The notes beneath the pieces are model-generated. The model saw only the letters and a program-made list of their open reading frames with translations, was not told the origin of the DNA and did not search any database. DNA of 59,318 bases, the filler included. It is 4 parts of 4 records of this genome, joined end to end, with 100 filler letters (N's around TTAATTAATTAA, not from the genome) between each part and the next. Parts side by side here need not be neighbours in the genome. Positions count along the whole stretch, not along the records: positions 31,834 to 54,113 come from SRR31156797_7068; 3 more parts are not named here. One strand, written 5' to 3'. The translations under genes and the position numbers were made by a program. How positions within the stretch are numbered: the stretch's first letter is position 1; each line of letters begins with the position of its first letter. Shown here in pieces: positions 40,588-54,113 of the stretch.

Positions 40588-40629
40588 CTTGTATAGGTAT
40601 ATTGTATTGAAATCCCAGGGAGGGCGGAT

Positions 40630-41064
40630 ATGGATAACACCGGAATATCACAACTGAGTCGCGCCTTAATCCAGATCGGATGGTATTTCGGCCCGAACGG
40701 CGTAGAGGGAGGCTGGTGCAGCGATCTCTCCCTGAGCGAGATCATAGCGCTGAATAAGATATACCAGACCAAAGAATGCTCTGTAAAAGACGTGAAAACC
40801 ACCCTCAACTACACCAAAAGCGGTGCCACGAGAATCGTCAATCGCCTGGAGAAGAAAGGATACGTTCAAAAGGTAAAGGCCGAGACCGATGCCAGATTCT
40901 GCTGCATTACCGCAACGGACGAGGGGGAAGAGGTGTTGAAAAAGGCCGACTCAACGTACGCAGACAAGTTTACCGACCTTCTGAACACATTCCCCTCTGA
41001 CGCCACAGAGGGTATAAAAGCCAACTTTATCTCCATTGCCAGGAGACTGGATGATGAGATATAG
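40630..41064 (+). CDS. MarR-family regulator, Cys-containing
   Basis: TKSGATRIVNRLEKKGYV...DARFCCITATDEG; also WCSDLS. Confidence 0.88.
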   Translation: MDNTGISQLSRALIQIGWYFGPNGVEGGWCSDLSLSEIIALNKIYQTKECSVKDVKTTLNYTKSGATRIVNRLEKKGYVQKVKAETDARFCCITATDEGEEVLKKADSTYADKFTDLLNTFPSDATEGIKANFISIARRLDDEI

Positions 41065-41093
41065 GTCCAGGGTCCAGTTTTTCAGCAATTTTA

Positions 41094-41187
41094 GTTGACT
41101 CCTTCAACCACTATGCGTATACTAAGCTTATAGTTGATCATGTCAACTATAAAAAATCAAACACAAATGGTTGACGCATTCAACCAT
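41094..41187. promoter_or_regulatory. Three GTTGA-N5-TCAAC operators plus a sigma70 promoter upstream of the permease
   Basis: Sites at 41094-41108, 41133-41147 and 41170-41184; TTGACT (41095) N17 TATACT (41118). Confidence 0.78.
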
Positions 41188-41195
41188 AAAATAAG

Positions 41196-41262
41196 GCCCT
41201 TCGGCCCTACCCAAGGAAATCACCAGGGCTCCAGTGGAGCCTTGGTAGTACAAGGAGATTAA
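41196..41262 (+). promoter_or_regulatory. Conserved 5'-leader element, copy 1
   Basis: GCCCTTCGGCCC-tacccaaggaaATC-a-CCAGGGC TCCAGTGGA GCCTTGG-..-AAGGAG-ATG. Confidence 0.75.
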
Positions 41263-42159
41263 ATGAATACTCTGATGGAAACTATCCACTTTTTTCTATT
41301 TATCATGGCGGAGCTGACGGTGCTCTTCATAGGGATCAGTACCCTTGTGGCTTTCATCCTCATGTACATCCCCCCGGAGAAGATCAAGAACTGGCTTTCC
41401 CGAAAGGGATTGTGGGGCAACCTTCTGGGCTCTATGGTCGGGGCGCTGACCCCCTTTTGCGCCTGTTCGACCATCCCCATGACCCTGGGCATGCTGAATG
41501 CGGGAGCCCCCTTCGGACCCGTCATGTCCTTCGTCATAGCCTCTCCCCTCCTGAATCCCATCATCATCGGCATCGTCGCCACCCTGATGGGACTGAAGGC
41601 CGCCGTCCTTTACTTCTCCATCACCTTTCTGGGGGCCATGGTCTTCGGCTTCATCCTGGAGGCGACGGGAGGGGGAAAACTGGTAAAGAAAGTAAGGCTG
41701 AAAAACGGAGGCGACGGTATCACCGGAGCCGATATCCCCGAGACCCTGAAGGGGAAGCTGAAAGAGTCCTTTCTGTCCGCGTGGAGAGATTTCTCAGGGA
41801 TATTTATCTACCTCCTTATCGGAGTCGGAATCGGAGCGGGGATCTACGGCTACATCCCCCAGGACCTTGTGGCGAAGCTGGCCGGTCCCCAGAACCCGCT
41901 GGCCATACCCGTTTCCGCCATCATCGGCATCCCCCTGTACATCAGAGCCGAAACGGCGATCCCCATCGGCCTTGCCCTGTCACAGAAGGGGATGAGCCTG
42001 GGAGCCGTTATCGCCCTGATAATCGGAGGCGCCGGTATGGCCATTCCGGAAATGAGTATGCTCGCCAGTATCTTCAAGAAGAGGCTGGTCGGCTCGGTCG
42101 TATCGGTCATCTTTCTGACGGCCGTACTGGGCGGTTACACATTCAATATGATCCTGTAG
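41263..42159 (+). CDS. ArsP/DUF318-family permease
   Basis: TPFCACSTIP, ASPLLNP, GIPLY, SIPE-like AIPEM. Confidence 0.88.
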   Translation: MNTLMETIHFFLFIMAELTVLFIGISTLVAFILMYIPPEKIKNWLSRKGLWGNLLGSMVGALTPFCACSTIPMTLGMLNAGAPFGPVMSFVIASPLLNPIIIGIVATLMGLKAAVLYFSITFLGAMVFGFILEATGGGKLVKKVRLKNGGDGITGADIPETLKGKLKESFLSAWRDFSGIFIYLLIGVGIGAGIYGYIPQDLVAKLAGPQNPLAIPVSAIIGIPLYIRAETAIPIGLALSQKGMSLGAVIALIIGGAGMAIPEMSMLASIFKKRLVGSVVSVIFLTAVLGGYTFNMIL

Positions 42160-42194
42160 GGATCAGAAGCATAGAGAGATAGAGGAGTTTGGCT

Positions 42195-42365
42195 ATGAAA
42201 GACAAGAAGAACGGTCTTTTCGATTTTTTGAGAGGAAGCGGCAGCTGCGGATGCGGCGGAGGATTTGTGTATGAAGACGATGAGAACGAAAAATCTTCGG
42301 ATGAAAAGCGCGAGACGAAGAAGGATGAAAAAAACAAGGTGCCTGTGAGAAAAGGCTGCTGTTGA
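42195..42365 (+). CDS. Small 56-aa Cys-rich, highly charged protein (not in ORF track)
   Basis: SD AGAGGAG at 42181; MKDKKNGLFDFLRGSGSCGCGGGFVYEDDENEKSSDEKRETKKDEKNKVPVRKGCC*. Confidence 0.75.
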   Translation: MKDKKNGLFDFLRGSGSCGCGGGFVYEDDENEKSSDEKRETKKDEKNKVPVRKGCC

Positions 42366-42497
42366 TGTAGGATATGATTCTTTCGGGGATATGGAGTCCC
42401 ACGCCTCGGGGCCGGAAGGAGGGTTTCCTCTTGCGATTACACAGCCCTGCGAATCAGATCTATACATAGTGGCCTGGATGAGATCGGTTCAAACCCT

Positions 42498-42575
42498 TCA
42501 GTCAGCAAGATGTTCAAGCGGGTCACGGGAGTCACCCCCAGTCAATACCGAAAGGATTTAAAGCAAGACTCCTGA
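42498..42575 (+). pseudogene. Remnant of an AraC C-terminal HTH
   Basis: Translates SVSKMFKRVTGVTPSQYRKDLKQDS*; no recognisable AraC sequence upstream. Confidence 0.65.
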
Positions 42576-42582
42576 CAAATAC

Positions 42583-43371
42583 TCAGCATATCTTCCGGAA
42601 TTCGGAAGCGGTCCGGCCCGTCTGCTTCTTGAAAACCCGGCTGAAGTGCAGGGGATCCCGGAAGCCCACGGATCGGGCGACGATGTCGATGCTGTAGGAG
42701 GTGGTCATGAGCAGCTCCATGGCCTTGTCTATGCGGTACCGTCTCAGGTAGTCTCTCGGGCTCTCCCCCGTCTTTTCCTTAAACAGATGGGAGAAGTAGC
42801 TGCGCTCCAGGCAGATGTGGTCCACCACATCCGCCACCGCAATGGGCCGGGTGTAGTTTCTCTCGATAAACAGGAGGGCCCTGCGCACATGATCGTCCTG
42901 ATCCGGGATCCTTCCGTCGGCGGAAAAGCGCTCGACCTCCCCGATGACCTTCATAAGGGTTCCCAGGATGCGCCACTCGCTGCCCGGCGTATCCCTCTTG
43001 GTCTCCATGATCTCATCCAGATAGTAAAAGGCCCGGCAGCTGTCGTCGAAGTTCAGAACGGGATTGTCCGGCCCCAGCCCCCAGGATCGGAAGGTCCGCA
43101 CCAGATCCTCCCCGTCGAAGCCGATCCAGGAGTAGGACCAGGGCGTGTTCTCATCGGCCCTGTACAGGGCGGGGGTATGGGGAAAGATGACGAAGCCCTG
43201 TCCGGCCCTCAGCTCGTAGCGCCGTCCTCCGCACATACACCATCCGCAGCCGGAACTGACAAAATGGATCAGAAAGTGATCCCTGGCCATAGGCCCGGAT
43301 TGATGACCGGGAGGGCAGTCCTGTTTCTTGCAGTAATAGACATTGTAGGGGCGGGATTTCATAGGCTTCAT
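42583..43371 (-). CDS. AraC-family regulator (MsmR-like ligand-binding domain)
   Basis: GPMARDHFLIHFV, PWSYSWIGF, VARSVGFRDPLHFSRVFKK. Confidence 0.92.
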   Translation of the reverse strand: MKPMKSRPYNVYYCKKQDCPPGHQSGPMARDHFLIHFVSSGCGWCMCGGRRYELRAGQGFVIFPHTPALYRADENTPWSYSWIGFDGEDLVRTFRSWGLGPDNPVLNFDDSCRAFYYLDEIMETKRDTPGSEWRILGTLMKVIGEVERFSADGRIPDQDDHVRRALLFIERNYTRPIAVADVVDHICLERSYFSHLFKEKTGESPRDYLRRYRIDKAMELLMTTSYSIDIVARSVGFRDPLHFSRVFKKQTGRTASEFRKIC

Positions 43372-43477
43372 ACTATCATGAATAGGAGGATCGGCAAGGA
43401 TGAATCACACAAATATCCATATAAAAGAACATATTGACAGCTCGCCCATACCTCCTTGCAGGGGGTATACTGAAGCA

Positions 43478-45610
43478 ATGAAAGGCTCTATAAAAAGCAT
43501 CCCCCGATTCTGGATAGTCTCTTACGCCCTTACCTTTCTCCTTCCCATGGTTCTCCTCTGCTTCTCCTTCCTGAGCAGTGATAAATACTGGGAGAAGGAT
43601 GTGCGGAATTTCTATCTCAGAGCCGCGGCCTATCATGCGGAAAAATCGGATGATCTGTTCAGGAAGATTGAGATGCTGGAGCTGGAACTGGGATGGGACA
43701 AACGATCGACGATGCTGAGTCACAGCTCCCGCCTGGGCCCCGAAGAGTATTATGAGGCTCTCAGCCTCAAAGGTTTTATCAACAACAGCCTCGTGAGCCG
43801 TCCCTTCCTCAAAGAACTGCTCCTCTATTTTCCGGACCAGGAAAAGATCCTGACCAAAAACGGCCTGTACGATAAGGAGGAGTTCATACGCCTCTTTCCA
43901 TCGGCTGCCCAATCGCGTGCCCGTGAGTTTTTAAGCCGCTCCCTATCCGGTAGCACATCCCGCGGACTCTACCGGCTGCCGGAACAGGATGCGCTCTCCT
44001 CCCTTGTTATGATAAGGCGCTTTCCTCTCAACTCCGCCTCCGGCCCGAAGATTGCGGTGATCAGCATACTGGACCGGGTTTACTGGGAAGAATCGTTCAG
44101 AACTCTTTTCCCCGGTAGGAACAACGGCGGTGATTTCCACCGGACCGGAGAAGAGGACGGCCTTATCCATTTCGCGGGAACGTCTCCGCGCAGAAAGACG
44201 CAGGAAGTGAGAATCCCTTCGTCGGTTCTGAAGGGAGAGTACCGCTATGCATTCCCCCCTCCGGGGGAGTACGGAAACTATCGCCTGGCCCGGATAGTCG
44301 GACTTGCCGCCATGCTGATATGCCTGGTGGGCGGTTCGGTCTTCACAGTATATTCGGTTCGGATGAACCTCAGGCAGATCAAACCGATCTACAAGCTCCT
44401 CTCCTCTGAAACAAGCTCCCCCCAGGTTCTGAAGAACAGGGTGGAAGGGATTCTGGACAGGAACAGGATGATGGCGGGACGTCTGGAAAAGGTACGGCTT
44501 CTCCAGATGATATGCGGTAGCGACGTCGAGAGCCGGGACGGCAGCCTTGCGCGGCTCCTTCCCCATGAGAGCCATCTGATCTGCCATTGGAAGGGAGAAG
44601 AGACCCCTTCAATCCCCTCTCCGGAAAAGGGAATCATACTGGAATGGCCCCGATTCCGCGGAGACGAATCCCTTCTCTTATGGAACGGTCCGTCCGATGA
44701 GGAAACGGGAGTGAAAACCCTTCTTGAAAATACCTTCCGCCAGGAAGGCATCCCCGCCGGGTGTAGTCATTCGGTGGGAGAACTCAAAGACCTTAAAGAC
44801 GCCCTGGAACAGGCGGGGGAGGCTTCGGAGTACAGCCGTCTGAACGGAACGGCGGGGCTGATGGTCTACGCCAGCGAATCAGGAACCCAGAGACTGCCCG
44901 AGGGAAAGGGTACCCTGAAACTCGTCAATATACGCAGGCATATAAAGTCCTGCGAATGGAGCGCCGCGCGGAGAGAGATCAGCAGCTATATGACAGAGCT
45001 CAAAGACCCCGGGATCTCGGCGGCGATGATACGCATCCAGGCCTACGCCCTGTTGTCCGCCCTGGCCGATGGATTGGGACGGCTGAGGTCGACAGACGCG
45101 GCGGGTCTTGCGGAGCGGATAGACGGCCTGACCCGGGACTTCGAAGCCTCAGGACGCCTCAGCGCCATGGAAGAATCGGTCATCGCTCTACTCGAAGAGC
45201 TGGAGACTCAGACCACCGAAGAAGACGGAGCCAGCGGCCCCTGGACCTCCCAGGTATCGGATTACCTGGAAGAGCATTATGGAGACAGCGGTCTCTCCGT
45301 ACAGGGCATGGCCGAAGAGCTGAGCACGACAGCCTCCTATCTCTCCTCCGTATTCAGGAGGGAGAACGATACGGGACTGCTCGGCTTTATCCACAGATTC
45401 CGGCTCAGGAAGAGCCTCCCCCTGATCAACGACAAGAGCAATTCCATCAGAGAGAGCGCCGAAGCGGTCGGGTTTATGGGCTCCAACGCCTATATCCGTT
45501 CTTTCAAGAAATATCTGGGGATCACCCCCGGAGGCTTCAGGGCGCTTTCTGATGATGAAAAATGGGCGATCATCGAAAAAATGGAAGATTCCCGTACCCG
45601 AAGGGGCTGA
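43478..45610 (+). CDS. Membrane-anchored AraC regulator (YesS/YtdP-like)
   Basis: Two TM segments flanking an extracytoplasmic region; C-terminal HTH (YLSSVFRRE, YIRSFKKYLGITPGGFR). Start at ATG 43478 preferred. Confidence 0.8.
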   Translation: MKGSIKSIPRFWIVSYALTFLLPMVLLCFSFLSSDKYWEKDVRNFYLRAAAYHAEKSDDLFRKIEMLELELGWDKRSTMLSHSSRLGPEEYYEALSLKGFINNSLVSRPFLKELLLYFPDQEKILTKNGLYDKEEFIRLFPSAAQSRAREFLSRSLSGSTSRGLYRLPEQDALSSLVMIRRFPLNSASGPKIAVISILDRVYWEESFRTLFPGRNNGGDFHRTGEEDGLIHFAGTSPRRKTQEVRIPSSVLKGEYRYAFPPPGEYGNYRLARIVGLAAMLICLVGGSVFTVYSVRMNLRQIKPIYKLLSSETSSPQVLKNRVEGILDRNRMMAGRLEKVRLLQMICGSDVESRDGSLARLLPHESHLICHWKGEETPSIPSPEKGIILEWPRFRGDESLLLWNGPSDEETGVKTLLENTFRQEGIPAGCSHSVGELKDLKDALEQAGEASEYSRLNGTAGLMVYASESGTQRLPEGKGTLKLVNIRRHIKSCEWSAARREISSYMTELKDPGISAAMIRIQAYALLSALADGLGRLRSTDAAGLAERIDGLTRDFEASGRLSAMEESVIALLEELETQTTEEDGASGPWTSQVSDYLEEHYGDSGLSVQGMAEELSTTASYLSSVFRRENDTGLLGFIHRFRLRKSLPLINDKSNSIRESAEAVGFMGSNAYIRSFKKYLGITPGGFRALSDDEKWAIIEKMEDSRTRRG

Positions 45611-45728
45611 ATACCCCGTTCCCATCCCCTGATTCGCGGCGCCCTGTTCCGCTGCGAAAAAACAGCGATATACGATCCTCTGCCCATGCCTCCATACTGG
45701 GGAAAAACTTAAAGGAGTAATCTTAGAA

Positions 45729-46973
45729 ATGAAAAAGATCGTAACCCTTTCCCTTCTCGTTCTGCTCAGCGCAGGATTCATTTTCGCCGGGGGCTCGCAG
45801 GATGGTTCTTCAGGCGATAAGGCCCGGATAACCTACGGCTACTGGAGCGCTGACCAGGAACCCGCCATAGAGGCGATCAGAGAGGCCTATAATGCCGAGA
45901 ATCCCGGAGTGGAAATAGACTTTGAGATCACCCCCTGGAGCGAATACTGGACCAAACTGGAAGCCTCTGCCATGGGCGGAACCATGCCCGACCTGTTCTG
46001 GATGCACGCCAACCGTTTCGCCAGCTACGTCACCAATGACGTACTGATGAACCTGAGCGACCTGGACGTGGACTACAGAGACTACAAAGAAGAGATCCTG
46101 AGCCTCTATACCTACAAGAACGACTACTATGCAGTTCCCAAGGACTTCGACGTGGTCGGTCTGTTCTATAACAAGGAGATCTTCGACGACGCCGGCATGG
46201 CTTACCCCTCTGCCGACTGGACCTGGGACGATCTTCTGGCCGCCGCAAAGGAACTGAACGATCCGGAAAACGGAATCTTCGGCTTCGCCGCCCCCGACAC
46301 CAACCACCAGGGTTATTTCAGCGTCATCTACCAGAACGGCGGCTCCGTTCTGGACAGGGAAGCCGGAGTTTCCCATATGGACAGCCCCGAGACCATAGAG
46401 GCCGTACAGTTCTGGAAAGACTTCATTGGAAAGCATAAGGTCTCCCCCACCCAGGAGCAGATGGCCGATACGGATGCCAAGACCCTCTTCACATCGGGCA
46501 AGGTCGCCATGCTCTTCCTCGGTTCCTGGAAGATCACGGGCCTGGCCGAGAACGAGGCCATCAGGGACAAGTTCGACGTGGCGCCCCTTCCCCGGGGAGT
46601 CAGACAGGCGACCATCATGAACGGACTGGGCTACTCCGCCTCCGCAGCGACGAAGAGTCCCGAAGCGGTGCGCTCTTTCATCAGCTTCCTCGGTTCGGAA
46701 GAGGCAGCCCGCCTACAGGGTACGCACGGAGCCGCCATTCCCGCCTTCAAAGGGCAGGAGCGCTCCTGGCTGAGCACCTTCCCCCAGTATGACGTGGAAA
46801 GCTTTATCGAGATGGCATCCTACGGGGTTCCCCTGCCCACCTCTCTCTCCAAGTCGAAATGGGAGCCCGTCATGGAATCCCATATGAGAAAGGCCCAGGC
46901 GGGAGAGGAATCGGTGGCAGAGGCCTGTCGAAGCATCGCCGAAGAGATGAACGCATACCTCGGCAGAGAATAG
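45729..46973 (+). CDS. Sugar ABC transporter substrate-binding protein
   Basis: Spirochaete-style signal ...FAGGSQD, PWSEYWTKL, LFYNKEIFD, WTWDDL. Confidence 0.92.
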   Translation: MKKIVTLSLLVLLSAGFIFAGGSQDGSSGDKARITYGYWSADQEPAIEAIREAYNAENPGVEIDFEITPWSEYWTKLEASAMGGTMPDLFWMHANRFASYVTNDVLMNLSDLDVDYRDYKEEILSLYTYKNDYYAVPKDFDVVGLFYNKEIFDDAGMAYPSADWTWDDLLAAAKELNDPENGIFGFAAPDTNHQGYFSVIYQNGGSVLDREAGVSHMDSPETIEAVQFWKDFIGKHKVSPTQEQMADTDAKTLFTSGKVAMLFLGSWKITGLAENEAIRDKFDVAPLPRGVRQATIMNGLGYSASAATKSPEAVRSFISFLGSEEAARLQGTHGAAIPAFKGQERSWLSTFPQYDVESFIEMASYGVPLPTSLSKSKWEPVMESHMRKAQAGEESVAEACRSIAEEMNAYLGRE

Positions 46974-47007
46974 CTCCTCTTTTAACCGTACCCATTTAAC
47001 CAAAACA

Positions 47008-47036
47008 ACTGCCGGAGCTGTCAGCTCCGGCAGTCT
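47008..47036 (+). terminator. Intercistronic hairpin after the SBP gene
   Basis: ACTGCCGGAGCTG-t-CAGCTCCGGCAGT. Confidence 0.55.
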
Positions 47037-47051
47037 CGATCAGGAGACTCT

Positions 47052-47927
47052 ATGAAAAAACAGGACTGGTTCTGGGGATATGCCCTGGCCCTCCCTACCG
47101 TGGCGGGCCTGGCGATTCTGAATATCTATCCCATCTGCAGAACCGTTTTTATGAGCTTCACCCGCTCCTCCGGCTTCGGACGATACAGCTGGGCGGGGGT
47201 GGAAAACTATATTCGCATGCTGTCCGATCCCCTGGTATGGCAATCCCTGGGCAACACCCTTGTCTTTACGATCCTCTTCGTACCGATGGGCCTGATCCTG
47301 GGCCTTGCCTCCGCAGGCGTCCTTTCTGCTGTAAAGAGAGGTCAGAAGGGCTTCAGGACCGTTTACTTCCTGCCCCTGGTTGTGGCTCCCGCCGCGGTGG
47401 CCATACTCTGGCGATGGCTGTTCAACGCGGACTACGGTCTGATCAACTATCTTATCTCCCTGGCAGGCATCGAGGGCCCCCGCTGGCTCACCCGTCCGGG
47501 CTTCTCCCTCTTCTCCCTCTCGGTAGTGGCCGTATGGAGCGAACTGGGCTATAACATTGTGATCCTCCTTGCAGGTCTTCAGGACGTGCCCGAATCTTAT
47601 TACGAAGCGGCGAAGATCGATGGAGCCTCGGGGCTGAGACAGTTTATCTCCATATCCCTGCCCCTTCTGACCCCATCGCTCTTCTTTCTGATGATCACCA
47701 ATGTCATGAAGGCGGTAAAGCAGTTCGATCTGGTCTATATGATGATCGATAAGATGAACCCCGCCCTGGAAGAGACCCAGACCCTGCTCTACCTCTTCTA
47801 CAGCCATGCCTTTGAAAGAAACGAGAAGGGCTACGCCTCGGCGGTCGTGCTTCTGGCCGTCCTTCTGATCATGCTCATAACCTTCTTCCAGTTCCAGATG
47901 CAAAAAAGGTGGGTTCATTATGAATAG
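47052..47927 (+). CDS. Carbohydrate ABC permease
   Basis: GVENY, LAGLQDVPESYYEAAKIDGA EAA motif, GYASA. Confidence 0.93.
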   Translation: MKKQDWFWGYALALPTVAGLAILNIYPICRTVFMSFTRSSGFGRYSWAGVENYIRMLSDPLVWQSLGNTLVFTILFVPMGLILGLASAGVLSAVKRGQKGFRTVYFLPLVVAPAAVAILWRWLFNADYGLINYLISLAGIEGPRWLTRPGFSLFSLSVVAVWSELGYNIVILLAGLQDVPESYYEAAKIDGASGLRQFISISLPLLTPSLFFLMITNVMKAVKQFDLVYMMIDKMNPALEETQTLLYLFYSHAFERNEKGYASAVVLLAVLLIMLITFFQFQMQKRWVHYE

Positions 47928-48747
47928 AATCAAAGATATGGGCCGGACGGCCGCCTACGCACTCCTCCTGCTGGGAGCGGTTCTGATGATATTTCCCTTT
48001 ATCTGGATGCTGCTGAGTTCTCTCAAATCCTACGGAGAGGCCATACGCATCCCCCTGACCTTCCTGCCGGAGCAGTGGAGAGGGGACAACTACAGCAAGG
48101 CCTTGAAGCTTCTTCCCTTTGCCAGGCTCTACTGGAATACGGCTCTGATGATTGCGGGACGCTGCCTCTGCGCCTTTTTCTTCTGTTCCATGGCCGGCTA
48201 CTCCTTCGCCAGACTCCGCTACCCCGGACGGACCGTCCTGTTCAGCCTGGTACTGATACAGATGATGGTGCCTTCCCAGGTCTTCGTCATCCCCCAGTAC
48301 ATCATGGTGCTGAAGATCGGATGGCTGAATTCCATCCCCGGCCTTGTTTTTCCGGGTCTGGTAAGCGCATTCGGAACGTTCCTTCTCAGACAGTTTTACA
48401 TGACCGCTCCCGCGGCCCTGGAGGAGGCGGCTCTTATTGACGGCGCCAACAAGGGGCAGATATACTGGAAGATCATGCTACCCCTTGCCAAAAACTCCCT
48501 GATGGCCCTCGGCATCTTTACGGCTCTCTTCGCCTGGAAGGATCTTATGTGGCCGCTGATCATCAACACATCCATCGACAAGCTGACCCTCTCCTCGGGA
48601 CTGGCCAATCTTCAGGGGCAATACGACACGAACATCCCCGTCGTACTGGCAGGCAGTATGATCGCCACACTGCCGATGATCCTGATCTTTCTCGTATTCC
48701 AGAACCACTTCGTCAAAGGCATCGCTTTTACGGGGAGCAAAGAGTAA
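47920..48747 (+). CDS. Carbohydrate ABC permease
   Basis: AGYSFARL, LEEAALIDGA, WKDLMWPL, FQNHFVKG. Confidence 0.93.
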   Translation: MNRIKDMGRTAAYALLLLGAVLMIFPFIWMLLSSLKSYGEAIRIPLTFLPEQWRGDNYSKALKLLPFARLYWNTALMIAGRCLCAFFFCSMAGYSFARLRYPGRTVLFSLVLIQMMVPSQVFVIPQYIMVLKIGWLNSIPGLVFPGLVSAFGTFLLRQFYMTAPAALEEAALIDGANKGQIYWKIMLPLAKNSLMALGIFTALFAWKDLMWPLIINTSIDKLTLSSGLANLQGQYDTNIPVVLAGSMIATLPMILIFLVFQNHFVKGIAFTGSKE

Positions 48748-48750
48748 GGG

Positions 48751-50307
48751 ATGACAGGCATTCAAAGGGGAGCGCTGCGGCTCTGCGTTCTTTGCGCAAG
48801 CCTCTTCCTGACGGGCTGCTCCGAAACAGAAGAGACACCGGCCGCCAGGCTCAGCTATTGGGTGGAAATCCACCCGGAGGCGGCCAAGCTCATGGAAAGC
48901 TACAATGAGAATGAGGCCTACAGGGAGATACAGAGAAGAACGGGAATCGAGGTGGAATTCATCCACCCTCCCCTGAAACAGAAGAGGGAGCAGTTCGAGC
49001 TGCTTCTGGCCTCCGGGGATCTGCCGGACATTATAGGAAGCGTCGACCATCTGGGAGGCTACCCGGGAGGTCCCGACAAGGCCGTACAGGACGGCCGCTG
49101 GCTGAGGCTCAACGAACTGATTGAGGCCCATGCCCCCCACTACAACGCCCTGTTGAAGACGAATCCGGAGTTCCGCAGAGGGGCGGTCTCGCCCGAAGGG
49201 AACATCAGCTCCTTCGATATGGCCATGACCGAGCCCGCCCTCCCCTGGCAGGGAATGATCATCAGAAAGGACTGGCTGGACATCCTCGGCCACCCCGTCC
49301 CGGAAACCATCGACGACTGGGAACGGGCTCTGACGGGCTTCAAGGAGGTCCTCCATGCGGAGGCCCCTCTGAATATCAGGCTGGACGGCGCCTTCTTCCG
49401 CTCCCAGGTCTTTGCGGGGGCCTGGAACACCGGATTCTGCTGGATCAACAAGGAAGGCAGGGCTCTCTGGGGACCGTCCACTCAGGAATATCGGAGCTTT
49501 CTCCTCACCCTCCGCCGCTGGTACGAGAGGGGCCTGCTGGATCCGGAGTTCGCCATCCGCCATGACGACAGCATAGAACGGGGCATGATCACCGGAAGGA
49601 TGGGAGCCTGCAACAGCTACTACGCCTGGTACGATGTCTTTCTAAAGGCTAATAGCGACGATCCCCGTTACGATCTGGCGGGAGCGCCCTACCCTGTCCT
49701 GAACAGGGGTGACCGCGTGCGCCTGAGCCACTACCTTCCTGCGAATCAGCAGAACCGGACGGTGATCACAAGCTCCTGCGGCGATCCCGTATCGGCTGTA
49801 AAGTTTCTGGATTACGGTTACGGCGCCGAGGGTTCCCTTCTCCTGACCTACGGCCCCGAAGGAGTCAGCTTCGAAAGAAAGGAGGGCGATCCCTATTTTA
49901 CAGACCTTCTGCTCAACAATCCCGACGGCCTTCCCTACAACACCATCCAGTACCGCTATGCCATGAACCACGGCCCCTTCCTAATCGACGGAGGTAAAGA
50001 CAGGGCCAAAAAGATGCCCTCCCAGATTACAGAGGCCCAGCGCCTCTGGGCCGAAGCCGGTCACGACTGGATGTGGCCCCGGATGATCTATTCCATGGAG
50101 GAGGCGCAGACCATCAGCAGCCTTTCGCCGGGATTGGAATCCTACAGCCTCGATATGACACTCAGATTTATCATGGGCCTGGAAGATCTGAACAACTGGG
50201 ATACTTATGTTGACGAATTGATCTCCAGAGGACTGATTGAACTGACAGAGGCCAAACAGAGCGCCCTTGATCGTCACATGTCCGCTCCGCCCCCCTTGTC
50301 TCCCTGA
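48751..50307 (+). CDS. Second extracellular solute-binding lipoprotein (LplA/aldouronate type)
   Basis: Lipobox LTGC, RRTGIEVEF, LLASGDLPDI, IRKDWLD, PETIDDW. Confidence 0.88.
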   Translation: MTGIQRGALRLCVLCASLFLTGCSETEETPAARLSYWVEIHPEAAKLMESYNENEAYREIQRRTGIEVEFIHPPLKQKREQFELLLASGDLPDIIGSVDHLGGYPGGPDKAVQDGRWLRLNELIEAHAPHYNALLKTNPEFRRGAVSPEGNISSFDMAMTEPALPWQGMIIRKDWLDILGHPVPETIDDWERALTGFKEVLHAEAPLNIRLDGAFFRSQVFAGAWNTGFCWINKEGRALWGPSTQEYRSFLLTLRRWYERGLLDPEFAIRHDDSIERGMITGRMGACNSYYAWYDVFLKANSDDPRYDLAGAPYPVLNRGDRVRLSHYLPANQQNRTVITSSCGDPVSAVKFLDYGYGAEGSLLLTYGPEGVSFERKEGDPYFTDLLLNNPDGLPYNTIQYRYAMNHGPFLIDGGKDRAKKMPSQITEAQRLWAEAGHDWMWPRMIYSMEEAQTISSLSPGLESYSLDMTLRFIMGLEDLNNWDTYVDELISRGLIELTEAKQSALDRHMSAPPPLSP

Positions 50308-50335
50308 AGCGTCCATTATTATACTCTCATTGTAT

Positions 50336-51055
50336 ATGGCAAAGAGCAGAAGGGGCCTCCTCTCCAAAAGGTTGAGCCGGGCCGTTATGGAATACGACCT
50401 TATCTCTCCGGGCGACCGGATACTCCTGGCCCTTTCGGGGGGCAAAGACTCCCTGGCCCTGGCCTGGTTTCTGGGACGTATGGCCGGTTCCTACCCCGTC
50501 CCCTTTACGGCGCAAGCCCTCCATGTCCGGTCGGAGGTCCATCCGACCACCCTCGCTCCGGCCCTGGAAACGATGATGGCCCATTGGGGAGTCCCCCTGA
50601 TCGTCCTGGACCAGCCCATCCGGGACAGCCTGAAGCCGGGAGAGGATCCGAACTGCTTTATCTGCGCCCGCAAAAGGAGAGAGGCCCTTCTCTGCTACGC
50701 GAAGGAGGAGGGCTATCAGGCGGTGGCCCTGGGTCACCATATGGACGACATCCTCTGCACCCTGCTGATGAATATGGTATGGAAAGGGGAGACGGCGGCT
50801 ATGCCTCCCCTGCTGGACTACGGGGAGGGATTAAAGATCATCCGCCCCTTGAGCCTTATTCAGGAGCATCTGATCGAAGAGTTTATACAAGAGATGGGGT
50901 GGAGGATTCCCGCCAAGCGCTGCCCGTATCAGGGGGAGGACTCAAGACGGATAGAGGCCGCCCGGCAGCTGAGAGAGCTGACCGCGGGCAAGGACAGCCT
51001 GAAGTACAATATGTACAGGGCTTTGAGTCATATAAACAGGGACCTGCTTCCCTGA
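50336..51055 (+). CDS. ttcA: tRNA 2-thiocytidine biosynthesis TtcA-family protein
   Basis: PP-loop SGGKDS, CFIC, LGHHMDD, IIRPL. Confidence 0.8.
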   Translation: MAKSRRGLLSKRLSRAVMEYDLISPGDRILLALSGGKDSLALAWFLGRMAGSYPVPFTAQALHVRSEVHPTTLAPALETMMAHWGVPLIVLDQPIRDSLKPGEDPNCFICARKRREALLCYAKEEGYQAVALGHHMDDILCTLLMNMVWKGETAAMPPLLDYGEGLKIIRPLSLIQEHLIEEFIQEMGWRIPAKRCPYQGEDSRRIEAARQLRELTAGKDSLKYNMYRALSHINRDLLP

Positions 51056-51059
51056 CGGA

Positions 51060-51413
51060 TCAGCCGGCTTTGGTAGAGCAGGTTCCGGTCGTGCAGCTTT
51101 CGCGGGTCGACACCTTGATAATCTTCCTGTCGGCGTTGAGCTGTTCGTCATCCTCTGCGAAGGAGGCGGCGTCTCGGAGGAATTTCATGGCCTTCTCATC
51201 GGCAATGAAATACTCCACCCATTTCCCGTCTTTCCTCTGATCCACAAGCCCCGCGTTCTTCAGAATTTTGAGATGGTTCGACAGGGTGCCCCCGGCGATT
51301 TCCAGAACCGAAAGGAGTTCGCAGACGCAGAGGGGCTTTTCCAGAAGCATCATGCAGATACGAAAACGATTGGTCTCTCCCAGAGCTTTGAATCGGCTTA
51401 CTAGATCTTTCAT
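51060..51413 (-). CDS. ArsR/SmtB regulator with As(III)-type CVC site
   Basis: FKALGETNR, PLCVCEL, LSNHLKILKNAGLV, RKDGKWVEY; divergent from the permease. Confidence 0.92.
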   Translation of the reverse strand: MKDLVSRFKALGETNRFRICMMLLEKPLCVCELLSVLEIAGGTLSNHLKILKNAGLVDQRKDGKWVEYFIADEKAMKFLRDAASFAEDDEQLNADRKIIKVSTRESCTTGTCSTKAG

Positions 51414-51436
51414 GCCTAAAAAATACCAGAAAGGGC

Positions 51437-51482
51437 TTGCCAAAGCAATACTTAAGCTATACATTTAGCTAATCATCGAAAC
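51437..51482 (+). promoter_or_regulatory. Promoter (TTGCCA-N17-TACATT) and probable ArsR operator
   Basis: AGCTA-tacatt-TAGCT palindrome over the -10 in the arsR/permease divergent gap. Confidence 0.5.
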
Positions 51483-51496
51483 ATAAAGGAGCAGCC

Positions 51497-52465
51497 ATGA
51501 AGGCATTCACACTGCTGGCAGACTATCTGACCTACACGCTTCTGGGCATGGACCCCGCAGGCAGGTGGTCCGGTTCGGTACATTTTTTTATCGAAGACAT
51601 CAGCAAGATTTTCGTCCTGCTTTTTATAATGATCTATCTTATCGCCCTGCTCAGAGCCGGGGTGGATACGGAAAGGATCAGGCACTACCTCCAGGGCAAA
51701 CACCGGGGCTTCGCCTATCTTCTGGCCTCCCTCTTCGGAGCGGTCACCCCGTTCTGCTCCTGTTCCAGCATTCCCCTCTTTCTGGGATTCACCTCCGCCA
51801 GGATCCCCCTGGGCATCACCATGGCCTTCCTGATCACCTCCCCCATGATCAACGAGGTGGCCATCGTCCTTCTGGGCTCCATCCTGGGACTCAGGTTTAC
51901 GGTTCTGTATGTTATCACGGGAATGGCCGCGGGGATCCTGGGAGGTTTCTTTATCGACGCCATCAAGGCGGAGAAATATCTGACCACGCTGGGGCAGCAG
52001 GCCAGGGACATGAAGGCCGGCGATGAGGGGTACGAGAAGAGGAAACTGAGCTTCAAAGACCGTCATGATTTCGCAAAGTATGAGCTGAAGGATATCGTAG
52101 GCAGGATCTGGAAGTGGATCCTCCTCGGCGTCGGCCTGGGGGCCTTCCTCCACGGATTCGTTCCCGAGGAGTTTATCACCAATCATCTGGGCAGCCACAA
52201 CTGGTGGACCGTTCCCTCCGCCGTCGTACTGGGCATCCCCCTCTATGCCAATGCCAGCGGCATCATCCCCATAGCCGAGACCCTTCTGGCCAAGGGGCTT
52301 CCCGTGGGAACCACCATGGCCTTTATGATGAGCGTCGTGGCCGCCAGCTTCCCCGAGTTTATGATGCTCAAGCAGGTGATGAAGCCCCGGCTGCTGGTGA
52401 TATTCTTCCTGATGCTGCTGTTCTTCTTTACGGCAGCCGGATGGATATTCAATCTGGTATTCTGA
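51497..52465 (+). CDS. ArsP-family permease (organoarsenical efflux-like)
   Basis: HFFIEDISKI, TPFCSCSSIPLF, TSPMINE, GIPLYANA, SFPE. Confidence 0.9.
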   Translation: MKAFTLLADYLTYTLLGMDPAGRWSGSVHFFIEDISKIFVLLFIMIYLIALLRAGVDTERIRHYLQGKHRGFAYLLASLFGAVTPFCSCSSIPLFLGFTSARIPLGITMAFLITSPMINEVAIVLLGSILGLRFTVLYVITGMAAGILGGFFIDAIKAEKYLTTLGQQARDMKAGDEGYEKRKLSFKDRHDFAKYELKDIVGRIWKWILLGVGLGAFLHGFVPEEFITNHLGSHNWWTVPSAVVLGIPLYANASGIIPIAETLLAKGLPVGTTMAFMMSVVAASFPEFMMLKQVMKPRLLVIFFLMLLFFFTAAGWIFNLVF

Positions 52466-52540
52466 GATAGGAAACCGCGTCCGATTCCTCCCCGATGCGA
52501 AGGACCGACAGGGGAAGATGGATTATAATAAGTTGAGAAG

Positions 52541-52615
52541 GCCCTTCGGCCCGTTAAGGATAGATCGCGGAAGCGCTAGCTGGAGCTTCCGGAAAACATA
52601 AGGAGAAGAAAAACA
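52541..52615 (+). promoter_or_regulatory. Conserved 5'-leader element, copy 2
   Basis: GCCCTTCGGCCC-gttaaggatagATC-g-CGGAAGC GCTAGCTGGA GCTTCCG-..-AAGGAG-ATG; TATAAT at 52524-52529 just upstream. Confidence 0.75.
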
Positions 52616-52846
52616 ATGAAGATCGAAGTACTCGGATCAGGATGCGCCAAGTGCAAGGCCCTGGAAGCCAACACAAGAGAGGCCGTAAAGGACGCCGGCA
52701 TTGAAGCGGAGATCGTAAAGGTTCAGGATATGAAAGAGATCCTGGCCTATCAGGTGATGTCCACCCCCGCACTGGTCGTGGACGGCAAGGTCGTCAGCAC
52801 GGGCAAGCTTCTGAGCCCCGAACAGATCGTCCCCCTACTGGGATAG
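52616..52846 (+). CDS. Small thioredoxin-fold redox protein (MTH895/Thioredoxin_3 type, ars-associated)
   Basis: IEVLGSGCAKC, VMSTPALVVDGKV; 76 aa. Confidence 0.92.
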   Translation: MKIEVLGSGCAKCKALEANTREAVKDAGIEAEIVKVQDMKEILAYQVMSTPALVVDGKVVSTGKLLSPEQIVPLLG

Positions 52847-52910
52847 GCAGGGGATAGGCATATCAACAGATCTCCGGTGAATCTGAGGGGGATCTGCAGC
52901 TTAAGGTCGC

Positions 52911-52945
52911 AAAGGCCGGAACCGCTTGTGTTCCGGCCTTTTTTG
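52911..52945. terminator. Terminator between convergent genes
   Basis: AAAGGCCGGAAC-cgcttgt-GTTCCGGCCTTT followed by a T-tract. Confidence 0.8.
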
Positions 52946-52980
52946 CGGGCGCCTCAGCCTGCGTCGAAGCACAGAGAGGC

Positions 52981-54039
52981 TCAGCCCAGTTCCTCGGCGG
53001 CGTCCTTCACAAGCTGGGACTCTCCCCTCCGGCAGATAAGAGCCTTTCCGTTCCTGATGACAACGATCAGATCCTCCACTCCGCAAAGGGCTACGGGGAT
53101 GTCCGAATAGACGAAATTCCCCTTCCCTTCCGCCTCGAAGACGGGCTGTTCCGCGGGAGGATTCAGATCGGCTATGACATCCCAGCTTCCCACGTCGTTC
53201 CAGTCGAAACCGGAACGGACCATGGAGATCAGGCCGCTCTTCTCCATCAGGGCGTAATCGACCGAGTCTCGGGGCAGAGCGGCGTAGAGCTCGCTCAGAG
53301 GACCGTCGGGCATGACCACGGTGATATCGTTTTCCACATACGAGTCGGGACCGGAGTATTCCCCGTCGAAGGGGGTCTGCATTGCGGGAGTCCCCTTCCT
53401 CAGCTCATCCTGAAAAACAGACAGCTTGTAGGTGAACATTCCCGAGTTCCACAGGTAGTTTCCGGCTTTCAGAAAAGCCTCGGCCGTTTTCTGATCGGGT
53501 TTCTCTTTGAAAGAGATGACCTTGAAGCCGGGGGCGTCCTCCTCTCCCGCCTCAATATAGCCATATCCGGTGGAAGGGAAGTCGGGTTTGATTCCGTATA
53601 CCACCAGGCTGCCCCGCGCCGCCAGGACAGAGGCGGACTCAACATCGCGGCCGAATCCTTCTACATCCTTGATCAGATGATCCGCCGCGAGGACGAGGGC
53701 TGACGGGTCTTCTCCGCCCTCATGCCCTTTGAGCCAGGCAGCCGCATAGGCCAGGGCGGGTCCGGTGTTCCGGGCCTGGGGTTCTGCCAGAAAAACCATC
53801 TTCTTCCGGATCTCCGCCGGAAGGGAGCGGCTGTCCTCAAGGGCGGCTCTGATATGGTCCTTATGGGTCACCACCAGGATCTTTCCGCTGATGCCCAGTG
53901 AGGCGGCGCGGTTCACCGTGCCCTGGAAGAGAGACTCCTCCCCCTGAACGGTCATAAACTGCTTGGGTTTACTGCTATTAGATGCCGGCCAGAGTCTCTT
54001 TCCGGCTCCTCCGGCCATAATGATGACATGATCTACCAT
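52981..54039 (-). CDS. manC: Mannose-1-phosphate guanylyltransferase
   Basis: IMAGGAGKRLWP...PKQF, EPQARNTGPA, TGYGYI, FKEKPD, WNSGMF, SVDYALMEK, WNDVGSW. Confidence 0.92.
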   Translation of the reverse strand: MVDHVIIMAGGAGKRLWPASNSSKPKQFMTVQGEESLFQGTVNRAASLGISGKILVVTHKDHIRAALEDSRSLPAEIRKKMVFLAEPQARNTGPALAYAAAWLKGHEGGEDPSALVLAADHLIKDVEGFGRDVESASVLAARGSLVVYGIKPDFPSTGYGYIEAGEEDAPGFKVISFKEKPDQKTAEAFLKAGNYLWNSGMFTYKLSVFQDELRKGTPAMQTPFDGEYSGPDSYVENDITVVMPDGPLSELYAALPRDSVDYALMEKSGLISMVRSGFDWNDVGSWDVIADLNPPAEQPVFEAEGKGNFVYSDIPVALCGVEDLIVVIRNGKALICRRGESQLVKDAAEELG

Positions 54040-54113
54040 GATTATTTTATCTCCTCTTTCCTGCCAAAGCACCACAGGGGCTTTGGTGATTTATTCTCAT
54101 TGGGCCGAAGGGC
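54040..54113 (-). promoter_or_regulatory. Conserved 5'-leader element, copy 3 (at contig end)
   Basis: Reverse strand: GCCCTTCGGCCC-aatgagaataaATC-a-CCAAAGC CCCTGTGGT GCTTTGG-..-AGAGGAG-ATG. Confidence 0.75.

Follow-up and report, generated by a model that had tools for sequence, protein, structure and literature searches.

A putative family of small interspersed repeats at Shine-Dalgarno sites in an Oceanispirochaeta genome and its close relatives

The element and its three copies

The DNA analysed here, hereafter the window (59,318 nt, positions 1-59318), is composed of four contigs joined by runs of 44 N around a TTAATTAATTAA linker. A short element is found three times in its third contig (contig C, 31834-54113), each time just upstream of a coding sequence, and the products of these genes correspond by Pfam to an ArsP_1 permease, a Thioredoxin_3 protein and a ManC-type nucleotidyltransferase. 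A covariance model (CM, see below) restricts the element to this contig and finds no full copies beyond the three in the 59-kb window. Each unit comprises a first small hairpin (P1), a linker, a second hairpin (P2) and a few bases leading into the Shine-Dalgarno sequence (SD) of the downstream gene. The copies and their parts are located as follows.

41193-41257, plus strand: copy 1, whole unit, before the ArsP_1 permease gene (ATG at 41263); CM match at 41193-41251, 73.9 bits, E 1.7e-22
41193-41195 and 41195-41206, plus strand: copy 1, AAG (41193-41195) and P1, in which 41195-41198 pairs with 41203-41206 around a CTTC loop
41207-41222, 41223-41245 and 41252-41257, plus strand: copy 1, linker, P2 (then TAGTAC) and SD AAGGAG, respectively
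52524-52529, plus strand: TATAAT upstream of copy 2, in flanking sequence outside the unit
52538-52605, plus strand: copy 2, whole unit, between a second ArsP_1 gene (stop codon ending at 52465) and the Thioredoxin_3 gene (trx, ATG at 52616); CM match of 48.8 bits
52540-52543 with 52548-52551, 52552-52567, 52568-52591 and 52600-52605, plus strand: copy 2, P1 pairing, linker, P2 and SD AAGGAG, respectively
54051-54113, minus strand: copy 3, whose 5' side is lost at the contig end, before manC (ATG at 54039); CM match of 61.1 bits
54113-54102, 54086-54064 and 54054-54051, minus strand: copy 3, 12-mer, P2 and SD GGAG, respectively

An initial annotation had recognised the element by a 12-mer, GCCCTTCGGCCC, which does occur at exactly three sites in the window, 41196-41207 (+), 52541-52552 (+) and 54102-54113 (-). 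If at most one mismatch is tolerated, 0.49 sites would be expected by chance, and three were reached in 1 of 100 shuffles. The geometry then proposed is right for each copy, the 12-mer being followed by 14 nt that end in ATC, one purine, a hairpin, an SD (AAGGAG or GAGGAG) and an ATG, and AAG does precede the 12-mer in copies 1 and 2. Folding of the window copies gives two hairpins, P1 being formed as GGCC/CUUC/GGCC by the 12-mer together with the preceding G. In copies 1 and 3, P2 has 10 pairs and a 3-nt loop, so that the conserved TGG that had been placed in the hairpin cap is partly stem. As also noted at the time, a TATAAT ends 11 nt upstream of copy 2; no -35 box partner was found for it in a consensus scan, and a similar TACAAT exists at the corresponding empty site of a related genome (G001, see below). 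One of the DNA runs carries a 4-nt insertion, GATG, at 52516, just upstream of this TATAAT, which corresponds to a local duplication.

Architecture, covariation and distribution

Across the family, the unit (ca. 60-70 nt) reads in the following order: P1, a GC tetraloop hairpin of 4-5 bp; an A-rich linker of 13-16 nt that frequently ends in AAUCAC; P2, a hairpin of 7-11 bp of free sequence; the word GGYAG; a few bases; and AAGG|AG. The invariant 12-mer and the spacer of exactly 14 nt of the initial annotation are thus properties of the window copies only, since in relatives P1 varies with compensation and the linker varies in length. P1 loops of G001 include CUUA, UUCG, CUGC and UGA, and its P1 stems are compensated or contain wobble pairs, as in GACC/GGUC and GGUCC/GGGCC. 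The most conserved word of the unit is the P1 core CCCTTMGGCC, and this includes copies with reduced P1 pairing. The first four bases are AAGG in 27 of 41 copies. P2 is followed by GTAG in 16 copies, GCAG in 12 and GTCG in 4 (together 32/39), and AAGGAG or a close variant occurs a few bases later, 5-14 nt before the start codon.

The CM was built from 18 copies, and its matches in six genomes gave an independent set of 75. In both alignments all 10 pairs of P2 show changes on both sides. Paired cells amount to 87% of P2 in the 18 seed copies and 92% in the 75, and to 90.3% and 93.5% for the whole structure, as compared with ca. 77-78% in shuffled and at most 57% in slid-partner controls, the 75-copy alignment having been fitted to the model and therefore being biased in favour of the structure. 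The covariation claimed from the three window copies is borne out by these larger sets. The pairings contain 58 G.U pairs vs 22 A.C mismatches, and because the former outnumber the latter it is on the sense strand that the hairpins count and are kept, be it in RNA or in a single strand of DNA, and not as a symmetric duplex palindrome.

As stated initially, no known RNA family was recognised: Rfam 15 at gathering thresholds returned no match over the whole window, its E-value mode gave only chance-level scores around copies 1 and 2 (E 0.39-6.2), and nine related loci gave tRNA matches only. The literature searches made returned no description of the element. A census of MITEs (miniature transposable elements with inverted repeats) presents spirochaete genomes as MITE-rich, and the family is not named in its available text (PMC11602168); the part available of another report has as its topic TAACTGA repeats located before genes in Beggiatoaceae (PMC4679880).

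An exact pattern (AAG, the 12-mer, 11 unspecified nt and ATC) was scanned across 185,579 species genomes, one genome per species, and gave 31 stretches. The full architecture occurs in two of these, both in a single Oceanispirochaeta metagenome-assembled genome, G001; the remaining 29 have no hairpin or SD downstream and most have one common coding-like flank. G001 contains seven exact 12-mers, all with the architecture. The raw count of 12-mers was rejected as a measure of enrichment (in G001, 7 vs 7 for the reversed control, and 81 vs 114 with one mismatch); as the count is no higher than that of the control, it is the architecture as a whole, and not the word, that constitutes the signal. 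Among 27 new 12-mer loci from 38 related genomes, nine have the architecture while 18 look like chance coding matches.

The same 38 genomes were searched with the CM, the spread outside of them being covered by the exact-pattern scan only. At E<=1e-5, matches occur in G007 (97), G001 (40), G006 (19), G005 (11), G003 (7), G011 (3) and G008 (2), and none were found in the other 31; at E<=0.01 the counts become 115, 53, 42, 19, 11, 3 and 17, respectively, all per-genome counts being lower bounds because 145 candidates were scored per genome. What had been described as a leader in three copies is thus a family spread over a few marine spirochaete genomes, with at least 97 copies in G007 and at least 40 in G001, and the expectation that more copies existed was fulfilled by the related genomes, with 2 to at least 97 each. 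The seven carriers are exactly those genomes with a ManC at least 76% identical to that of the window, the next group (67-73%) having no copies. ManC of G001, the closest relative, is 91% identical, and the window organism is therefore closely related to G001. When positions 40600-42200 of the window were compared with five of the carriers by blastn, the element alone was matched (query ca. 587-672, at most 83% identity) and the flanking genes were not.

Genomic context, occupancy of orthologous sites and transcripts

Of 38 copies examined in G001, two are upstream members of tandem pairs. The other 36, solo or terminal units, are without exception co-oriented with an open reading frame (ORF) whose start codon lies 7-18 nt past the model end. 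The same spacing to a co-oriented start codon is found for all three window copies, in agreement with the sense orientation upstream of an SD and start codon that had been reported for them. The genes downstream in G001 include glmS, glgA, manC, a galE-like gene, two carbamoyltransferases, a carbamate kinase, ABC ATPases, msrAB, a TolC-like protein, Usp, RidA and others, and Pfam matches obtained for 30 of the 36 fall in many different families, so that the functional mixture first seen in the window extends to G001.

For at most 28 of the 39 terminal copies, the 120 nt upstream contain the end of an open frame that has the same orientation and is 100 codons or longer (an upper bound, stop-to-stop frames having been counted), and the AAGG of some units overlaps the upstream stop codon (TAAGG). 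Since many units are intercistronic, and some lie at an upstream stop codon, the element is tied to the ribosome-binding site (RBS) and not to the 5' end of the mRNA. The 5'-end placement that had been deduced for copy 2 is not sustained either by these positions or by a contig from an RNA library (X6 record 21) that begins 89 nt before this copy. This contig covers 52452-52783, which corresponds to the end of the ArsP gene, the spacer, copy 2 and trx, while a second RNA-library contig covers 53751-54113 and 10 nt beyond, with manC, copy 3 and a few bases upstream. Both fit a unit transcribed within mRNA, with read-through from upstream of the TATAAT.

In the other genomes, 46 clusters of CM matches were inspected, a sample biased towards top scores and arrays. 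In 26 of them, no more than 60 nt separate the last unit from a co-oriented ORF of 100 aa or longer, and in several more the distance is within 100 nt; ca. 10 of the 46 have no gene start nearby, and one pair in G005 adjoins the apparent end of a convergent gene. Units share a single orientation in 43 clusters and are mixed in three. Twenty-one clusters are solo, 15 double, 7 triple and 3 quadruple, so that 25 of the 46 are arrays, and tandem, nested and truncated units are all seen in relatives. In G007, the AAGG (or GAGG) at the opening of an older unit's P2 is often followed by a new unit (...AATCACC|AAGGCCC...), composite blocks of several units recur at different loci, and identical P2 sequences are found on unlinked contigs. 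Such a pattern is indicative of copying. Local arrays and half-units can be accounted for by slippage between AAGG words, but the spread to distant loci cannot. The initial annotation had named a REP or MITE as what randomly oriented copies would indicate. The variation in copy number from 2 to at least 97, the tandem, nested and truncated units and the filled and empty sites described below largely go in this direction; the orientation is not random, and the element is therefore no ordinary REP.

Some high-scoring units adjoin tRNA genes, as in L090 of G005 (1298-1800), L091 of G011, L109/L113, and L172/L167 of G007. They belong to stretches of ca. 250 nt that end in a duplicate of the last ca. 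18 nt of the tRNA, followed by a terminator. ARAGORN predicts a 95-nt 'tRNA-Ala' overlapping a unit in L109, with which the Rfam tRNA model disagrees. These units could be an integration scar, a small RNA gene or a source copy.

Occupancy could be compared at orthologous sites, the ArsP-trx-manC region being syntenic in G001, G003, G006, G007 and G008. The manC unit is present in the window and G001 and absent from G003, G005, G006, G007, G008 and G011, where the model check agrees and the leader continues directly into AAGGAG or AAAGGAG. At trx, one unit is present in the window and two CM matches with fragments in G007, the site being empty in G001, G006 and G008. The empty site of G001 reads ...gagattAAGGAG... 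(also given as ...atatgagattAAGGAGttacagtgATG) and the filled site of the window ...ataagttgagAAG[GCCC...CATAAG]GAGaagaaaaacaATG, i.e. ...gttgagAAG[unit...CATAAG]GAG. The additional DNA lies precisely within the SD, which it breaks as AAG|GAG, and its 3'-most bases restore it. Other sites differ in the same way: glmS is filled only in G001, G006 reading TAAcctcAAGGAGtcatataATG and G007 and G003 having a short fragment directly after the stop codon; glgA is also filled only in G001; and at OTC, G001 has two units and G006 a single degenerate one, with none in G007 or G003. The two genomes with a filled trx site are not sisters, and a different two have the manC site filled, which implies that SD sites either gained the unit repeatedly and independently or lost it repeatedly. 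In G003 (L211), the thioredoxin gene that follows ArsP seems to be without its 5' part, with C-terminal coding sequence alone past the permease stop codon.

Several P2 pairs differ between the manC copies of the window and G001, at least two of them by double, compensatory changes. A unit is also found before one gene (MTFGQT...) in G005 (L227), G011 (L234) and G008 (L117); G005 and G011 share 87-100% identity in its flanks but have an entirely different inner P2, which is again a perfect hairpin. No donor copy for the divergent hairpin of G011 was detected at up to three mismatches in five genomes, and the difference could reflect in-situ compensation, template switching in quasi-palindromes or conversion from copies since lost. 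More generally, every P2 sequence differs among the 41 copies of G001 and the window, yet all are well paired, which is hard to square with recent bursts and suggests, from the sequences, that the hairpin is maintained at each site.

The initial annotation had taken the end of contig C, which does fall precisely at the 12-mer of copy 3 with the N-linker beyond, as a hint at further copies. In the DNA run X2, unitigs break at 52541-52570, and a short unitig joins the 18 letters AGATGTGTATAAGAGACA, which we take to be a transposase-library adapter end, directly to 52541, where the 12-mer of copy 2 begins; the same adapter-like junction is found at 52815 in this run. A 1014-nt contig from another run extends 520 nt past 54113. 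Given these adapter-like joins and the longer contig, the break at copy 3 may have arisen from the library or the assembly, at a site where fragmentation is favoured, and is not proof of a repeat, although repeats do exist. The G008 contig behind locus L066 also begins with adapter-like letters.

Two further observations concern the remainder of the window. A perfect 8-5-8 palindrome, ATAGTTGA-TCATG-TCAACTAT (41131-41151), lies between a MarR-family gene (40630-41064) and copy 1, and as it sits just past a promoter-like sequence (TTGACT-17-TATACT, 41095-41123) it looks like a candidate operator for the MarR regulator. The G+C content of the four contigs is 0.365, 0.60, 0.579 and 0.30; these values differ so strongly that the contigs are probably not all from one organism.

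Nature of the element and likeness to known systems

We consider it rather probable that the three copies are members of a non-autonomous interspersed repeat, specific to this clade, which copies into SD sites and is transcribed in leaders. The unit would be, or would have been, copied into SD sites by a strand-specific mechanism. Its last bases, AAGG, form the SD together with the flanking AG or GAG, and its insertion would be tolerated because the SD is rebuilt. It would be transcribed in 5' untranslated regions and, more often, in intercistronic RNA, in which P1 and P2 may buffer or stabilise the downstream cistron. We infer that the unit is not a ligand-specific or pathway-specific switch, and a host function for the transcribed hairpins is plausible.

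Several points weigh against such a repeat. The 41 distinct but paired P2 sequences argue for long residence under selection, hence for a host function, and not for recent selfish spread. The RNA evidence consists of contigs assembled from RNA libraries; these may include DNA and show no start sites. The filled and empty patterns could in part be losses, and at most of the sites compared the flanks have diverged too far for exact borders to be drawn. In folding predictions, the SD has a mean unpaired probability of 0.44 and exceeds 0.5 in 13 of 38 copies; this accessibility is only moderate, and the unit may not leave the SD free or be harmless to translation. Finally, there are neither terminal inverted repeats nor a clear target duplication beyond AAGG, a word that is also needed for P1 and the SD, and none of the enzymes searched for (Y1_Tnp, RVT_1, IS110 DEDD and TnpB zinc ribbon) tracks the carriers.

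With respect to the ends, AAGGCCC... and ...GGTAGGACATAAGG are not inverted complements, as the ends of a classical MITE would be, and sharing between left flank and right end beyond AAGG shows no excess over expectation, so that the target-site duplication of a MITE is not seen either; single, suggestive longer duplications are found in L037 (8 nt) and L089 (6 nt). With respect to enzymes, Y1_Tnp (PF01797) was detected in 8 of the 38 genomes and in one of the seven carriers, G001, and was absent from G007 with its at least 97 copies; RVT_1 occurs in 23 genomes, of which 6 are carriers and 17 are not; IS110 DEDD occurs in 17, including one carrier; and the TnpB-type zinc ribbon occurs in 4, with weak matches alone in carriers. 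As the assemblies are incomplete and unannotated, the absence of an enzyme is weak evidence. The non-carriers G009 and G010 have 10-12 near-identical reverse-transcriptase ORFs of ca. 451 aa (RVT_1), and G009 has 10 identical IS110-type genes; these mobile elements are active-looking and unrelated to the repeat family.

A more specific form of the interspersed repeat, which we put forward tentatively, is a Shine-Dalgarno-homing element, i.e. a non-autonomous unit that would target the RBS, regenerate it from its own 3' end and be moved by a strand-specific mechanism involving RNA or single-stranded DNA. It would have been retained by the host as a cistron-insulating or stabilising leader before 1-3% of genes, with P2 turning over faster than its flanks while remaining paired.

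Among the alternatives, the one that best withstands these data, although we find it unlikely, is a global cis-regulatory RNA leader. A trans factor (RNA-binding protein, small RNA or the ribosome) would read P1, the linker and P2 before the SD and control translation or decay of a mixed regulon, the copies being alike by selection. This would account for the sense orientation and fixed start-codon distance of the 36 G001 units, for the strong covariation with its excess of G.U over A.C, for hairpins that are all different and still paired, and for the copies kept before manC in the window and G001 and before one gene in G005, G011 and G008; the linker also has GGA and A-rich words of the kind bound by CsrA or Hfq. 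It does not readily account for a copy number that varies 50-fold among close relatives, for orthologous genes that gain or lack the unit without pattern, for tandem, nested, truncated and a few inverted units, for arrays without a gene start nearby, or for downstream genes with no common pathway.

An element of the REP/RAYT type, or a palindrome derived from IS200/IS605, would be moved as single-stranded DNA by a Y1 (HUH) transposase that recognises its hairpins and inserts it 3' of AAGG. REPs are defined by a GTAG-type word 5' of the palindrome and are located mostly past gene ends. The unit does resemble REPs and their mosaic arrays (BIMEs) in its GC-rich imperfect palindromes, its GTAG-like word (28 of 39 copies have GTAG or GCAG at the P2 foot), its high-copy BIME-like arrays and its transcription in operons, and the hairpins are strand-specific, with one near each end and no terminal inverted repeats. 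It differs in that GTAG, GCAG or GTCG stands 3' and not 5' of the hairpin and that the units are polar to gene starts rather than ends. No RAYT gene flanked by inverted REPs was found in the carriers, whose assemblies are incomplete: besides the scarcity of Y1_Tnp, the Y1 locus of G001 has a single, unrelated-looking unit ca. 870 nt away and no inverted pair flanking it. As for the palindromes derived from IS200/IS605 (PATEs), hairpins are present and the ends are not inverted, and AAGG forms the left border in 27 of 41 copies, but this word also belongs to P1 and the SD. Mobility of this type is improbable here. The available part of PMC3184786 supports the above definition of REPs.

Still less probable is a repeated site acting at the DNA level, to which, for example, a nucleoid protein, gyrase or a regulator would bind and which would be coupled to a palindrome able to form a cruciform. 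Conservation of the P1 core even where pairing is reduced would suit a protein site, and other interspersed repeats bind IHF or gyrase according to the part available of PMC3184786, but the ratio of 22 A.C to 58 G.U indicates a hairpin read on one strand, and the polarity towards the downstream gene is strict. A riboswitch or other ligand-sensing leader, to which two helices and a conserved single-stranded linker before the SD might point, deserves hardly any credence given the lack of an Rfam match, at least 97 copies in one genome, unrelated downstream genes, tandem and truncated units, and the absence of a conserved internal loop or pseudoknot in the copies analysed.

The closest parallels lie among repeats that settle next to coding sequences. 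Like MIRUs, the units are short (40-100 bp), tandem and co-oriented with flanking genes in operons, with empty and filled sites; arrays in 25 of 46 clusters, a single orientation in 43 of 46 and a co-oriented frame upstream of at most 28 of 39 copies all conform to this description. MIRUs are described, in the available text of PMC12548453 and PMC3184786, as inserting at start codons while sparing gene expression. They carry a small ORF overlapping the neighbouring stop and start codons, which provides translational coupling, whereas in the present unit an ORF ending at the start codon is found in 11 of 38 copies only and the SD is rebuilt instead. There is also no sequence similarity, the phylum is different, and the unit has a two-hairpin architecture.

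REP2 of Neisseria and IR-A/IR-B of Borrelia, also a spirochaete, are likewise located directly upstream of ORFs, without terminal inverted repeats and with two internal stem-loops and an RBS (as given in the part available of PMC3184786). These are larger (120-150 bp) and bring a promoter and an ATG, whereas the present unit of ca. 60-70 nt ends inside the SD, so that half of the RBS is in the unit and the ATG is outside; it is mostly intercistronic and forms arrays, and a consensus promoter scan found no promoter recurring within units. Pneumococcal BOX elements are similarly modular, variable in number, transcribed, intergenic and able to modulate expression (available text of PMC3184786), but are built of boxA-boxB(n)-boxC modules and have no SD-splitting position. 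The order of parts, hairpin, single strand, hairpin and single strand with the SD, is the same as in an ompA-type 5'-UTR stabiliser, the difference being that ompA has a single-gene leader at a true mRNA 5' end, whereas the element is a multi-copy repeat often located inside operons.

Overall, the element more probably than not represents a small interspersed repeat family that is new and has an unusual and precise preference for SD sites. A strong covariation and a fixed position before the start codon are features that a repeat family can also produce, and taken alone they are no sign of a riboswitch-like regulator. Interspersed repeats of small size are common, but those known to prefer the regions of translation start and to mend the interrupted sequence are very few. 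If the present interpretation is true, splitting the SD and rebuilding it would be a third solution, beside the coupled ORF of MIRUs and the own RBS of REP2-type repeats. The more than 100 natural leaders, isogenic in style with one scaffold and different stems, would be usable to measure the effects of hairpins on translation and mRNA decay in spirochaetes.

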